DNA from: a virus | Taxonomy: Duplodnaviria > Heunggongvirae > Uroviricota > Caudoviricetes | Strand: one strand, 5' to 3' | IMG/VR virus record: IMGVR_UViG_643348545_000013 | Span: 1-57,943 of that record | DNA length: 57,943 nucleotides | Shown here: positions 51,001-57,000 of the stretch, piece by piece | Layout: the number at the start of each line of letters is the position of its first letter | Numbering within the stretch: position 1 is the stretch's first letter | Position numbers: made by a program

Positions 51001-54000
51001 GTCACTACCAGCAGATCGCCCGTGAAGAGAAAGAGGCAGAACTGGCAGACGACATGGAAAAAGGCCTGCCCCAGCACCTGTTTGAATCGCTATGCATCGA
51101 TCATTTGCAACGCCACGGGGCCAGCAAAAAAGCCATTATCCGTGCGTTTGATGACGATGTTGAGTTTCAGGAGCGCATGGCAGAACACATCCGGTACATG
51201 GTTGAAACCATTGCTCACCATCAGGTTGATATTGATTCAGAGGTATAAAACGGATGAGTACAGCACTCGCAACGCTGGCAGGGAAGCTGGCTGAACGTGT
51301 CGGCATGGATTCTGTCGACCCACAGGAACTGATCACCACTCTTCGCCAGACGGCATTTAAAGGCGATGCCAGCGATGCGCAGTTCATCGCATTGTTGATC
51401 GTCGCCAACCAGTACGGCCTTAATCCGTGGACGAAAGAAATTTACGCCTTCCCTGATAAGCAGAACGGCATCGTTCCGGTGGTGGGCGTTGATGGCTGGT
51501 CCCGCATCATCAATGAAAACCAGCAGTTTGATGGCATGGACTTTGAGCAGGACAATGAATCCTGTACATGCCGGATTTACCGCAAGGACCGTAATCATCC
51601 GATCTGCGTTACCGAATGGATGGATGAATGCCGCCGCGAACCATTCAAAACCCGCGAAGGCAGAGAAATCACCGGACCGTGGCAGTCGCATCCCAAACGG
51701 ATGTTACGGCATAAAGCCATGATTCAGTGTGCCCGTCTGGCCTTCGGATTTGCTGGTATCTATGACAAGGATGAAGCCGAGCGCATTGTCGAAAATACTG
51801 CATACACTGCAGAACGTCAGCCAGAACGCGACATCACTCCGGTTAACGATGAAACCATGCAGGAGATTAACACTCTGCTGATCGCCCTGGATAAAACATG
51901 GGATGACGACTTATTGCCGCTCTGTTCCCAGATATTTCGCCGCGACATTCGCGCATCGTCAGAACTGACACAGGCCGAAGCAGTGAAAGCTCTTGGATTC
52001 CTGAAACAGAAAGCCACTGAGCAGAAGGTGGCAGCATGACACCGGACATTATCCTGCAGCGTACCGGGATCGACGTGAGAGCTGTCGAACAGGGGGATGA
52101 TGCATGGCACAAATTACGGCTCGGCGTCATCACCGCTTCAGAAGTTCACAACGTGATAGCAAAGCCCCGCTCAGGAAAGAAGTGGCCTGACATGAAAATG
52201 TCCTACTTCCACACCCTGCTGGCTGAGGTTTGCACCGGTGTGGCTCCGGAAGTTAATGCTAAGGCGCTGGCCTGGGGAAAACAGTACGAGAACGACGCCA
52301 GAACCCTGTTTGAATTCACTTCCGGCGTGAATGTTACTGAATCCCCGATCATCTATCGCGACGAAAGTATGCGCACAGCCTGCTCTCCCGATGGTTTATG
52401 CAGTGACGGCAATGGCCTTGAGCTGAAATGCCCGTTTACCTCCAGGGATTTCATGAAGTTCCGGCTCGGTGGTTTCGAGGCCATAAAGTCGGCTTACATG
52501 GCCCAGGTGCAGTACAGCATGTGGGTGACGCGAAAAGATGCCTGGTACTTTGCCAACTATGACCCGCGTATGAAGCGTGAAGGCCTGCATTATGTCGTGA
52601 TTGAGCGGAATGAAAAGTACATGGCGAATTTTGACGAGATGGTGCCGGAGTTCATCGAAAAAATGGACGAGGCACTGGCTGAAATTGGTTTTGTATATGG
52701 GGAGCAATGGCAATGAAGCATCCTCACGATAATATCCGGGTAGGCGCGATCACTTTCGTCTACTCCGTTACAAAGCGAGGCTGGGTATTTCCCGGCCTTT
52801 CTGTTATCCGAAATCCGCTGAAAGCACAGCGGCTGGCTGAGGAGATAAATAATAAACGGGAGAGTGTATGATTCATTTTCACGGTGGTCCAATAACTCCC
52901 GATACCTGTGCGTTGAAAGCCTGGAAAGGCAGACACGCATTCATCAGTTTTGCTAATCCAGCTCAGATTGATCTGGCTTCCGAAGTCACCCAATCATTTG
53001 CTCTTGATAATGGTGCATTCACATTCTGGACAAAAAACAAGGCCATAGACTGGAATGAATATTACAGATTTGTTGAACGCTGGGGTAATCACCCTCGTTT
53101 CTCATTCGCGGTTATCCCGGATGTTATCGGCGGAACCAGTGAAGAGAATGACGCCCTGATTGCGGCATGGCCTCACGGTAAATTTATTGGTGCTCCGGTG
53201 TGGCACATGAACGAACCAGATGAGCGATTTATTCGTCTGTGCCATGAGTTTCCCCGCGTCTGCATCGGCTCGATGGGGGAATACGATGCAAAACGACCGA
53301 GAGCGTGTCGGGCTAAACTACGCGATCTTATACGTCATGTTGTAGATCAGTACGACTACCCAATCACCAAGATTCATGGGTTACGGATGTTAAATAAAGA
53401 CATTTTTACTCATGTACCGCTTTCGTCTGCAGACAGCACGAACGTCGCAAGAAATATAGGCATCGACAAATCCTGGGTAGGTTCGCCATATGCTCCCGCA
53501 AGTAAAGAAACCCGTACGCAAGTTCTTGTGGAACGCATTGAATCATTCAACAGTGCCAGTTCACTTAATTACAACGCTGAACGGGACGTCTTTACCCCTC
53601 AACTGGCATTCGAAGTGTGAGGCCAATATGACAATAGAACATAATAACGCCCTTCGCAGCATTGCCCGTCAGGCTAATTCTGAAATCAAAAAAGCCAGAC
53701 AGCAGTTTCCGGATAAAAACGTCGATGACATTTGCCGTAGCGTACTGAAGAAGCACCGCGAAACGGTAACGCTGATGGGATTCACACCGACTCACTTAAG
53801 TCTGGCAATCGGTATGTTAAACGGCGTCTTTAAGGAACGGTGAACATGAAAAGCAAAATCATCAGGGAGCTACAGGCTCCTTTTTTATTATTCGCATTCA
53901 CCCTCAAGCGTATTAACCAACAATTCAGGGATTAATGGAAGATGGCAGACCTCATTGATTCAGCATCAGAAATTGAAGAATTACAGCGCAACACAGCAAT

Positions 54001-57000
54001 AAAAATGCGCCGCCTGAACCACCAGGCTATATCTGCCACTCATTGTTGTGAGTGTGGCGATCCCATAGATGAGCGAAGACGCCTGGCCGTTCAGGGTTGT
54101 CGGACTTGTGCAAGTTGCCAGGAGGATCTGGAGCTTATCAGTAAACAGAGAGGTTCGAAGTGAGCGAAATTAACTATCAGGAACTGCGTGAAAAGGCAGA
54201 GAAAGCAACTAAAGGAAGCTACATCGTAGGGCATACATCTGTTAACCAGCACGGCAATTTAACAGGAGTTTTTGTTTGTCAAAAATGGAAAGGAGAACCC
54301 GGTGGCGTGATTGCCGAATGTCATGTTAACTGCCTGATTGAATCAGATGCTCAGGCTTATGCAAACGCTGAATTTATAGCAGATGCTAACCCAGCTACCG
54401 TACTGGCGCTACTGGATGAACGGGAAAGAAACCAGCAATACATCAAACGCCGCGACCAGGAGAACGAGGATATTGCGCTTACGGTTGGGAAGCTGAGAGT
54501 TGAGCTTGAGGAGACAAAATCAAAACTCAACGAGCAGCGTGAGTATTACGAAGGTGTTATCTCGGATGGAAGTAAGCGCATAGCAGAACTGGAAGCGCGG
54601 GAAATAAAACCAGCCAAAGGTGAAGTTCTGGTCGTTGTATCTGGTTTTACTGGTTGCGGAAAAAGCACCATTGCCGGGGAAATAGAAATCGCGATGAAGG
54701 CTATTGGTGTACCGGTTAAGTGGACTAATGGCGATGCAGAAAAGCGCATGACTGGCGCTGACTGGCTGACAGCGATTGAGATGTACAAACCAAATGTGCG
54801 CATCGTGGAAGTTAATGTGCCACGCGTCGCTGGCACTCGCATCAAAGGAGAGTGAGATGAACGGACAAATATCAATTGTTCGACCGGGAGCATGTGACGA
54901 TCGCGAGATACGAATGATTATTCGTCTGGCAATGGGGAAAACAATAACTGCTCTCATTACTCCTGAAAATCTCGCATTAGCATTAACAGGAAAGTCAGAC
55001 CTGCCAGTAGAGATAAAGCTGCGAAATATTGAGATTAAAGTGAAATAGTTATGAATACTCTTACCAAAGAATGGTTACAGAACACGATTACCAGCATTGA
55101 GTCAGCACGGGATGAAATACCGTTCGGACTCGATGAAGATCAAAACAACATGCTTACCGCATTAAAAATTGTACTGGCATCGCTGGAACGCGAACAGATT
55201 CGCCACGAGCATGCCAAATGGTCTGACTCCACATTTGGCTGCGTTGGCCCCCATTGGTCCACTGAAACACCTCTCAAAAGAGGCTCTGGAAGCCGCAGCC
55301 GAACCAGACGATCTCAGCGAGTGGGCTGATATGCATTTCCTGTTGTGGGATGCACAGCGCCGTTCTGGCATCAGCGATGCTGAAATTACCGCTGCTATGG
55401 AAGATAAATTGAAGATCAACATGGAGCGCCAGTGGCCTGAACCAAAAGATGGTGAGCCTCGCTTGCACATTAAAGAACCCGGCAACTATCCGGTAATTCC
55501 GGATGGTTTATCCACGGTATGAGCTGAGGCTTATCAGGTTGTAGGAGTTATGGCAGATGCGCTTGGTGTATTCGGTGATGCAGCAGTACAGAAAGTTCTG
55601 GATAACCTGTCACAGCAAAAACTTGTTCACAGAGATGTGCTGCCGTTCTCGCTTCCGGTAACTCCGGATGGTTGGATAAGCTGTAGTGAGCGAATGCCGA
55701 ACGATAAACAGTATGTTTGGTGTTGGGGTAAGTCTTACGGCTGGACTGAGTGCGATACCTTCGAAGGGTATTACGATTGTTCGAGAAACAAATGGTGGGC
55801 AGTTACTGACAATGGGGAAGAACCGGCATCGAAAGTAACCCACTGGATGCCGCTGCCAGAACCGCCGCAGGAGGTGAATCAATGAGCTGGCCTGATGCAA
55901 TCGTAACTCTGGGGATGGTATTCGCAGTAGCGTTTGTTGTGTACTCGATTTGTCGATGGGGATAACCACATGTTCGCTTTGATTCAACGCGGGCAGATAT
56001 ACACCGATAGTGCTGGCTACCCGATAAAAATTGTTCGCTGCATAAACAACACTGTGTTGTACAGAAGAATGGATGGGCGAACACAGTCAGTAAAAATAAA
56101 CGATTTCAATGAACTGTTTGAACGGATTGATCACCAAGAATACCGACAAATTCTGGCAGAAACAGAGCAGGAAGCTCATCTGAAAAAATTACGGGCCATG
56201 AAAAGGAAGTAAACAATGAATAAAGCATTTGAACGATGGGTCCACCAGCGTTACAGCAATCGCTATGATCTGACGCGAGATGTTGACGGTTTCTACTGTC
56301 GTGAAGTTGTGAAGCGAATGTTTGACGTGTGGTGCCACTGCCGTGGATGAAAATTTTATGAGGTTGGCATGCAGACAATCATCTATCAGATAACCCCCAG
56401 CAAATGGTGTACGGAGAGAGTCCTCATTGCATCAACAGGGCTAAAGCCTGGCACCATTGAGCGGGCAAGAAGAAAGTCATGGATGCAGGGAAAAGAATAC
56501 CGCCATTACGCTGTAGAAGGTGATCCGGGGCACTACAGTGAATGCCTGTACAACATCGAAGAAATTATGCGATGGATCGAAAACCAGAAACAACCAGGTG
56601 CCAAAAATGCAAGTTCCGGTTAACCTGTTAATGCTCCTGGACGTCTGGGAGGTTTAATGAGTAACGCATCATACCCGACAGGCGTTGAAAACCATGGAGG
56701 ATCACTCCGTATATGGTTTCACTATAATGGCAAACGTGTCAGAGAAAACCTCGGTGTTCCTGACACAGCCAAAAACCGGAAGATCGCTGGTGAACTTCGC
56801 ACTTCCGTTTGTTTTGCAATCAGAATGGGGAGTTTCGACTACGCCGCGCAGTTCCCTAATTCCCCTAACCTGAAACACTTTGGTCTGGGAAAAAGAGAGA
56901 TAACCGTTAAGGCACTTTCGGAAAAATGGTTGGACCTTAAGAAAATTGAGATTTGTGCGAATGCACTTAACCGTTACCAGTCAGTAATTAAAAACATGTT

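Follow-up and report, generated by a model that had tools for sequence, protein, structure and literature searches.

A probable singleton phage DpdA and an Ea22-like protein with a P-loop-like module in the early-left operon of a lambdoid prophage

DpdA enzymes of the DpdA1 type, such as those of the phages 9g, CAjan, Rosebush, and Rinkes, are encoded together with a preQ0/G+ pathway, and phages with this combination modify 25–32% of G. The survey of Hutinet et al. (2019; PMC6884629) also distinguished, as a third group, 76 "DpdA only" phages, defined by the absence of preQ0 genes, whose modification status is hard to predict and for which host preQ0 or uptake is possible. The gamma-proteobacterial singleton DpdAs (SfI, HK106, BTP1, SPN3UB, SEN1, and 7-11) come without preQ0 or G+ genes, and in the temperate phages with a singleton DpdA, the gene lies in the early-left operon. 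We analyzed a 57,943-nucleotide stretch of viral DNA (IMG/VR record IMGVR_UViG_643348545_000013; hereafter, the window), which is a lambdoid prophage of the E. coli/Shigella type, and found the same arrangement in its early-left (pL) operon: the gene for a 250-aa protein that is very probably a phage DpdA of the tRNA-guanine transglycosylase (TGT) superfamily branch, as indicated by sequence profiles, catalytic motifs, and fold, and, farther downstream, the gene for an Ea22-like protein whose C-terminal module resembles part of a P-loop NTPase. A preliminary description of the sequence had pointed to these two open reading frames (ORFs) and to one motif in each, DNGAF and GFTGCGKST, and all are present as described.

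Compared with the SfI-type gene, the one studied here shows no substantive difference and sits in a different lambdoid mosaic. It has five motifs in common with the pathway-encoded DpdA1 enzymes, which have no zinc motif either, but it is shorter (250 vs. 290–317 aa), is unaccompanied by FolE, QueD, QueE, QueC, or Gat-QueC, and is carried by a temperate lambdoid phage. The bacterial DpdA of the Salmonella Montevideo Dpd system (PDB 7UI4) has a 128-residue insertion, Ins8, and a CxCx2Cx22H zinc site, both of which are missing here, as are a DpdB or DpdC partner and a match to the PADLOC DpdA model. TGTs (bacterial TGT, ArcTGT, and QTRT1/2) are larger, at 373–577 aa, and have a zinc subdomain and extra N- or C-terminal domains, whereas the 250-aa protein has neither, does not match the Pfam TGT model, and has DNA as its predicted substrate. 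Cap10 of type IV CBASS (PDB 9NTN) is encoded in a host defense operon and binds the CD-NTase N terminus carrying 7-amido-7-deazaguanine; the 250-aa protein shows no detectable sequence similarity to it, and no Cap9 or CD-NTase gene lies near dpdA.

Family membership and active-site motifs of the 250-aa protein

The 250-aa protein matched PHROG 887, "queuine tRNA-ribosyltransferase," with E 9e-99. We built a family profile from 37 members (63–98% identity) and compared it by hhalign to reference DpdAs: the probability was 93% (E 3e-7) for the validated DpdA of phage 9g and 96% (E 1.6e-9) for that of mycobacteriophage Rinkes, whose dpdA, part of a Rosebush-type cluster, has a GTP cyclohydrolase gene on one side and queC-queD-queE-folE on the other. 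Searches with tblastn found 35.5% identity to the DpdA of Salmonella phage 7-11 and 39.7% identity to a Caulobacter phage (DMCA) gene abutting queD. Clustered at 90% identity, the family has 6182 clusters; at 50%, 856 representatives remain. Its members, found in Enterobacterales, Aeromonas, and Vibrio, are nearly all of about 250 aa and unnamed. The AlphaFold (AF2) model of the protein (predicted local distance difference test, pLDDT, 79.9; predicted template modeling score, pTM, 0.82) has a TGT-like (beta/alpha)8 barrel fold, and the protein can be described as a minimal TIM barrel of the TGT fold that lacks the zinc subdomain; the best structural match was Cap10.

A multiple alignment with the enzymes of 9g, Rinkes, phage 7-11, a Rogunavirinae phage, and the Caulobacter phage revealed five common motifs, including all three Asp residues: LD(N/S)GA(F/Y) with D47, (P/L)D(V/G)IG with D85, P-x-x-H with H113, K/E-x-HG with H170, and S-x-DS with D189. 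These five key residues are invariant within the family. In the first motif, where DNGAF is aligned with LDSGAF of 9g and IDSGAY of Rinkes, D47, G49, and A50 are invariant in the 37 homologs; the segment around D85 pairs with LDVIG in Rinkes and LDGIG in 9g; and in the last, A188-D189-S190 is invariant and SADST is aligned with SCDSS of 9g and SVDSA of Rinkes. From the D-x3-F spacing, D47 and F51 are the probable equivalents of D95 and F99 of bacterial DpdA, and motif and spacing suggest that D85 corresponds to D130, the residue of base recognition. D189 would be analogous to the nucleophile D256 of the same enzyme, and H170/D189 may correspond to the pair H226/D248 of Cap10, a correspondence drawn without superposition.

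The preliminary description had connected DNGAF only faintly with the DpdA-type enzymes and called the idea speculative. The profile comparison with the reference DpdAs yielded a match, and the predicted fold is TGT-like; with PHROG 887, the shared motifs, and a 99%-identical ortholog already on a published list, the case is stronger than was then thought. At the DNA level, the gene is 99.6% identical to that of Escherichia phage PhiR5_1 and 98.5% to that of Shigella phage SfI, and the protein is 99.2% identical to the SfI product YP_009147480, which Hutinet et al. (2019; PMC6884629, Supplementary Data 1) count among the singleton DpdAs. The "DpdA only" list of the same study contains HK106, BTP1, SPN3UB, SEN1, and 7-11; the protein identity is 67.6% to the homologs in BTP1 and SPN3UB and ~36% to those in HK106 and 7-11. 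The gene was thus catalogued as DpdA in 2019 and is named in RefSeq, where the SfI, BTP1, and SPN3UB products are called "queuine tRNA-ribosyltransferase"; what the window holds is another copy and not a new gene. Among 5426 complete E. coli genomes, 100 carry dpdA at ≥99% identity, and in all of these the gene is chromosomal. In the E. coli records listed, the annotation pipeline PGAP labels it "hypothetical protein," beside a "DUF1317 family protein," which means that the published assignment has not reached routine genome annotation.

Precursor supply and possible substrates

A Pfam scan of 56 ORFs in the window (84–396 aa) found no QueC, PTPS/QueD, radical-SAM QueE, or GTP cyclohydrolase I, and we rejected a self-sufficient modification cluster for this reason; membership in the published group remains allowed, as it is this absence that defines it. 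With no preQ0 synthesis genes found in the window, any 7-deazaguanine must be made by the host. E. coli hosts possess the full Q pathway, and the DpdA of 9g, acting in E. coli, introduces preQ0 and G+ into DNA. Expressed alone in E. coli, 9g dpdA gave dPreQ0 in 0.3% of plasmid G (PMC6884629), so the host pool is enough for a phage DpdA. Phage 7-11, which likewise has DpdA alone, contains dADG. In phage Phleasolo, the depositor's "VUT family protein" beside a DpdA homolog was not confirmed by Pfam, and the possible YhhQ link was not used.

We infer that dpdA would be expressed early from pL in lytic growth, after infection or induction, and that the enzyme would draw on the product of the host FolE-QueD-QueE-QueC pathway, the substrate base being preQ0 or a close 7-deazaguanine relative. 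The predicted target is double-stranded phage DNA, in which, once it is replicated, a fraction of the guanines would give way to that base. The expected chemistry is the double displacement of TGT and DpdA enzymes: D189 would be the nucleophile that forms a covalent enzyme–DNA intermediate, D47 would serve as general acid/base, and D85 would recognize the base. Progeny DNA would probably gain partial protection against restriction and against other defenses that sense DNA. We lean slightly toward the view that this DpdA puts host-derived 7-deazaguanine into DNA in vivo; the level of modification may be low and is probably limited by the host supply of preQ0.

Several observations weigh against DNA modification by the 250-aa protein or against its placement among DpdAs. 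It had no match by sequence or profile in Pfam, NCBIfam, the PADLOC DpdA model, or PDB, and Foldseek of the model against PDB returned generic TIM barrels only (E > 2e-3). The zinc site CxCx2C...H is absent, the protein having four Cys and no C-x(1-4)-C pair, and Ins8 is absent, since the protein ends 61 residues past the nucleophile and Ins8 has 128 residues. Both are likewise absent from the validated 9g DpdA and from Cap10, and their absence is a trait of the minimal phage branch and no anomaly here. Bacterial DpdA requires the ATPase DpdB, and no ParB/DpdB-type partner was found among the 56 ORFs scanned. The DpdA-only phage 7-11, the nearest singleton tested, has dADG at a low 0.02% of G, and Orion, another singleton, has no modified DNA (PMC6884629). 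The gamma-proteobacterial singleton DpdAs form a sequence cluster of their own, and their function may have diverged (PMC6884629); in the literature found, no member of this subgroup had been assayed, and among later publications we found no paper testing a lambdoid or singleton DpdA.

The same evidence can be read in terms of other substrates. The protein could retain the TGT-like pocket and have diverged in activity, acting as a DNA glycosylase without reinsertion, as a binder or sink of 7-deazaguanine, or as a Cap10-like enzyme on deazaguanylated protein. The closest structure is that of Cap10, which is directed at protein and likewise has no zinc site and an Asp/His pair; the singletons form a similarity cluster of their own, the original authors raised divergence, and the tested singleton phages have very low or zero DNA modification (PMC6884629). 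In our judgment, divergence is improbable. A special case would be a zinc-less TGT-like enzyme serving counter-defense on 7-deazaguanine chemistry outside DNA, an idea that comes from the Cap10 match and the nearly unmodified DNA of the tested DpdA-only phages. Such an enzyme might remove or redirect the 7-amido-7-deazaguanine with which type IV CBASS (Cap9/Cap10) tags the cyclase, or it might drain the host preQ0/CDG pool needed by type IV CBASS and QatABCD; we give this only a very slight chance. An action on tRNA, altering the queuosine-type modification of the infected cell and leaving DNA alone, is suggested by the "queuine tRNA-ribosyltransferase" name in PHROG 887 and RefSeq and by the fold in common with TGTs, and Hutinet et al. 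(PMC6884629) note that phage genes related to the precursors could increase the Q content of the host's tRNA. We regard action on tRNA as highly improbable.

A P-loop-like module at the C terminus of the Ea22-like protein

Ea22 proteins are described as mosaic, tetrameric, and pro-lysogenic. Lambda Ea22 and the Shiga toxin (Stx)-phage variants V1–V3 (Donaldson and Wegrzyn groups) have the same N terminus and coiled coil as the protein studied here, the same position after orf73/TraR, and a swappable C terminus. Residues 2–145 matched Pfam Ead_Ea22 (PF13935) with E 1.7e-40 (139 bits vs. a cut-off of 27), the protein matched PHROG 250 (E 2.8e-78), and ea22 follows the TraR-like gene as it does in lambda, the Stx phages, and PhiR5_1. 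The difference lies in the C terminus: the DNA match to V3-variant phages ends before it, and it contains a Walker A motif, which is unmentioned in the Ea22 literature searched. In place of the usual C-terminal domain stands a 78-aa module that resembles the core with which P-loop NTPases bind nucleotides, with a predicted layout of strand, Walker A, helix, and strand, followed by an hhhE strand.

The module (residues ~146–231) was found in 412 clusters at 77–99% identity, always C-terminal and on varied Ea22-type N termini, in E. coli, Salmonella, Shigella, Citrobacter, and Klebsiella. Distant copies identified by tblastn, at 32–50% identity, are embedded in larger proteins from Burkholderia phage BcepC6B and from jumbo phages of Burkholderia and Ralstonia, and the flanks of the module in them do not align with one another. 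Across these distant homologs, 13 positions are invariant, among them G..G.GKS, W188, W202, E217, and P221; E217, the Glu of VRIVE, is invariant in four divergent homologs, and no reliable structure places it beside the P-loop. The Walker A Lys is kept in 180 of the 181 cluster representatives, and some module-bearing proteins are named "ATP-binding protein" by NCBI. Two sampled homologs carry unrelated extensions of ~9 residues. We rejected a continuation of the module into the next gene (54857–55048, 63 aa), which is in another frame and into which no sampled homolog continues.

Profile searches gave weak matches to P-loop NTPase families only, 12 of 12 in Pfam for the module alone and 13 of 13 in NCBIfam for the whole protein. 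They include APS kinase (E 0.003), ParA/NUBPL, AAA_18, PRK, MinD, and 2-phosphoglycerate kinase, and every one of them pairs residues ~145–200 with the Walker A end of the model, covering the N-terminal 40–50 positions of kinase/SIMIBI-type families. The nearest PDB sequences to the module were those of SRP54 and ArsA. With P-loop NTPases of the kinase/SIMIBI type (APS kinase, ArsA/Get3, MinD/ParA, and SRP54/FtsY), the module has in common the order strand, GxxGxGKS, helix, and strand and a later hydrophobic strand with an acidic residue, but it measures ~78 aa and not ≥150 and has no further strands or switch regions. A low-confidence AF2 model places a strand at positions 11–16 and a helix at 23–36 (residues 156–161 and 168–181), the strand–loop–helix expected around Walker A. 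On these comparisons, we take the module to be genuinely P-loop-derived by homology.

Against this stand the weakness of the matches and the size of the module. It reached none of the P-loop family thresholds in Pfam or NCBIfam, the best Pfam score being 18.0 bits vs. a cut-off of 21.1 and the rest lower; the AF2 model of 86 residues is unreliable (pLDDT 52.8), and a Foldseek search with it was uninformative (all E > 0.28). With its 78 aa, the module reaches the end of the protein, whereas a canonical P-loop domain has ≥5 strands and ≥150 aa. No PDB sequence, the solved lambda Ea22 domain included, matched the Ea22 C terminus.

The preliminary description had proposed NTPase or kinase activity from the motif, and a chance match in a coiled-coil protein was the obvious objection. 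The objection was not borne out, as Walker A sits in a separate, conserved, and portable module and the comparison with P-loop families returned nothing else, though below threshold. The proposed NTPase or kinase activity found no such backing: with a module about half the size of a normal P-loop domain, it goes beyond the evidence, and catalysis is at most putative. The module plausibly binds a nucleotide or a phosphate ligand within the coiled-coil oligomer, perhaps with the site completed by oligomerization, and for nucleotide binding as such we consider the prospects evenly balanced. As a member of its family, the Ea22 module is a minor undescribed variant.

A reading to which we give a little less than an even chance is that Walker A is a nonfunctional relic or a coincidence and that the module is merely a structural or protein-interaction domain. 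Taken alone, the motif G....GK[ST] is at chance level, with 0.75 occurrences expected in the shuffled proteome of the window and P(≥1) = 0.53, and the small size, the missed thresholds, the poor model, and the empty fold search all fit. The known C-terminal domains of Ea22 proteins are mosaic, mutually unrelated, and acidic, and the solved one from lambda, which is small, dimeric, and of alpha-beta type, has been proposed to bind a protein of the host. Within Enterobacterales, the modules are ≥~77% identical, and conservation of the motif there tells little. What speaks against a relic is the uniform nature of the 25 weak matches on the Walker A end, the retained Lys and the NCBI names, and, above all at 32–50% identity, the presence of G..G.GKS and the VRIVE Glu among only 13 invariant positions. 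A different suggestion joins the two proteins, making the Ea22-like protein an ATP-dependent helper of the singleton DpdA in a role like that of DpdB. The bacterial enzyme needs its ATPase, ParB-type genes adjoin some phage dpdA homologs, dpdA and ea22 are separated by 540 nt within one operon, and in BTP1, too, an Ead/Ea22-like gene adjoins dpdA. The pairing is not conserved, however: SfI has dpdA and no ea22, PhiR5_1 has dpdA with a different Ea22 C terminus, and BP-4795 and JLK-2012 match this Ea22 C terminus with DUF1382 in place of dpdA. We rejected the partnership on these grounds and hold it to be extremely unlikely. The two genes are neighbors by operon architecture, their adjacency following from the exo-xis region's fixed gene order, and they form no conserved pair for which a functional link is supported.

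Operon setting and other genes of the window

The pL operon lies on the + strand in the order N, the Nmad5 gene, kil, gam, bet, and exo, and the genes from exo to ea22 are a tightly coupled exo-xis part of it (Table 1). The preliminary description had the 250-aa ORF chained to exo; a translational overlap does exist, but the partner is the orf60a-like gene, exo lying one gene further upstream. The counterpart of this DUF1317 gene is annotated "orf60a" in PhiR5_1, and a 71-aa "orf61" is annotated at the equivalent place in PhiR5_1 and PA28. By comparison with PA28 and PhiR5_1, dpdA fills the slot that orf63/DUF1382 occupies in other lambdoid phages between orf60a and orf61; lambda has orf63 at this position, and P22-like BTP1 has its 67.6%-identical dpdA homolog in the equivalent early "ea" region. 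An ORF of 117 aa overlapping dpdA (53490–53843) is a probable overextension of the orf61-like gene, as PHROG 303 covers only its residues 45–117. SfI has an annotated 90-nt coding sequence at the place equivalent to the 29-codon ORF. The TraR/DksA-like protein matched Pfam zf-dskA_traR (E 7.7e-9), PHROG 54 (E 3.8e-25), and TIGR02419 (E 1.1e-14).

Promoter-like sites in the 5.5 kb scanned were fewer than expected from shuffles (3 vs. 7.1). The sole match on the + strand was weak and lies inside ea22 at 54259–54286, and none was found upstream of dpdA; with no convincing site ahead of it, dpdA is expected on the pL transcript. A terminator-like hairpin of eight pairs at 53864–53882 (+), followed by TTTTTATTATT, separates the orf61-like gene from the TraR-like gene. 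This could be a terminator of the tL type, antiterminated by N, that gates the expression of the TraR-like gene and ea22.

Table 1. Positions of the genes, motifs, and other features within the window, starting with the exo-xis region
Feature	Position	Strand	Remarks
bet	51254–52039	+	
exo, lambda-type YqaJ exonuclease	52036–52716	+	Pfam YqaJ E 5.5e-30; PHROG 149 exonuclease
orf60a-like, DUF1317, 54 aa	52707–52871	+	Pfam DUF1317 E 2.1e-33; 10-nt overlap with end of exo
Probable singleton phage dpdA, 250 aa	52868–53620	+	ATG overlaps stop (TGA) of orf60a-like gene (ATGA)
DNGAF, D47...F51 (residues 47–51)	53006–53020	+	Predicted general acid/base Asp and base-stacking Phe
P84-D85-V86-I87 motif	53117–53131	+	Invariant
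SADST, D189	53426–53440	+	Predicted catalytic nucleophile, paired with invariant H170 (KIHGLR)
orf61-like, 71 aa	53628–53843	+	7 nt after dpdA; ATG preceded by GAGG
29-codon ORF	53846–53935	+	2 nt after orf61-like gene; contains terminator-like hairpin
orf73-like TraR/DksA C4 zinc-finger protein, 73 aa	53942–54163	+	6 nt after 29-codon ORF
Ea22-like, 231 aa	54160–54855	+	GTG start overlaps stop of TraR/DksA-like gene (GTGA)
Portable C-terminal module, 78 aa, residues 154–231	54619–54852	+	
Walker A GFTGCGKST, residues 162–170	54643–54669	+	
E217 of Walker-B-like VRIVE	54808–54810	+	
int	56657–57943		Window end
Protein with YadA-type membrane anchor	832–2022		
Bro-N/P22_AR_C antirepressor-like protein	10108–11022		
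Small ribbon-helix-helix ORF	11085–11348	-	
Small ribbon-helix-helix ORF	11312–11584	+	
ClpP-like protease	11584–12120	+	
Tail protein L gene	12177–12929		Between ClpP-like and porin genes
OmpC-type porin	13072–14235		Pfam Porin_1 E 1.5e-138
ParE-like toxin	31260–31589		
TerB-domain protein	39095–39598		
Phage Dam N6-adenine methyltransferase	42968–43522		

Some genes near dpdA homologs in other phages were noted in their own right. In Pantoea phage AH07 (L008:2182-3504), a dpdA homolog of 67% identity is overlapped at its start by the gene for a 440-aa ParB-helix-turn-helix protein, an arrangement that resembles, by analogy, the DpdB-DpdA pairing of the bacterial Dpd system. Gene 1 of Rinkes (L004:1-1302), annotated "ParB-like nuclease," is found just upstream of the dpdA/preQ0 cluster and carries DUF6610, a family that Cui et al. 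(2023) connected with DpdA4. In the window itself, directly after N, an Nmad5 protein is encoded at 49694–50377 (+, likely start ATG 49754) with a full-length match to PF18757 (E 1.1e-68). Its homologs were found in 239 phage records, comprising many Stx phages, M6/Yua-like Pseudomonas phages, and Dhillonvirus, and in Dhillonvirus point mutations in nmad5 allow escape from the Tmn defense system (PMC11846954). We rejected Nmad5 as a DpdA partner, as its phage homologs are not visibly codistributed with DpdA and SfI is without it.

Downstream of ea22, a dATP/dGTP pyrophosphohydrolase domain (PF04447, formerly DUF550) at 55051–55522 (+) is split over two reading frames, the ORF 55051–55329 covering profile positions 1–19 and the ORF 55169–55522 positions 15–96. 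The split implies a frameshift near 55240–55260, which could reflect a pseudogene, a sequencing error, or recoding; in BTP1, the DUF550 gene eaA directly follows the dpdA homolog. Elsewhere, an accessory cluster at 10108–14235, running from the antirepressor-like gene to the porin gene, is inserted among the tail genes, and the Dam enzyme would give the prophage a second means of modifying DNA, independent of the first.

As a whole, an explanation in which a singleton phage DpdA works on host 7-deazaguanine and a mosaic Ea22 carries a P-loop-like module seems to us reasonably probable. The gene for the former is one of a family with >6000 sequence clusters, nearly all without a name, and its place is the exo-xis region, a part of lambdoid and Stx-type phages that is poorly understood. 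For the latter, a unit of ~80 residues with only the Walker A/B core is a possible natural minimal P-loop and a handle on the ligands of Ea22. If the DNA is modified with host preQ0, temperate coliphages would bear a mark against restriction that depends on the host and costs little, and such a mark could affect restriction, CRISPR targeting, and base calling when induced phage DNA is sequenced by nanopore or single-molecule real-time (SMRT) methods. Lambda-type genetics are suited to the question posed in 2019, whether DpdA-only phages use the precursor of the host.

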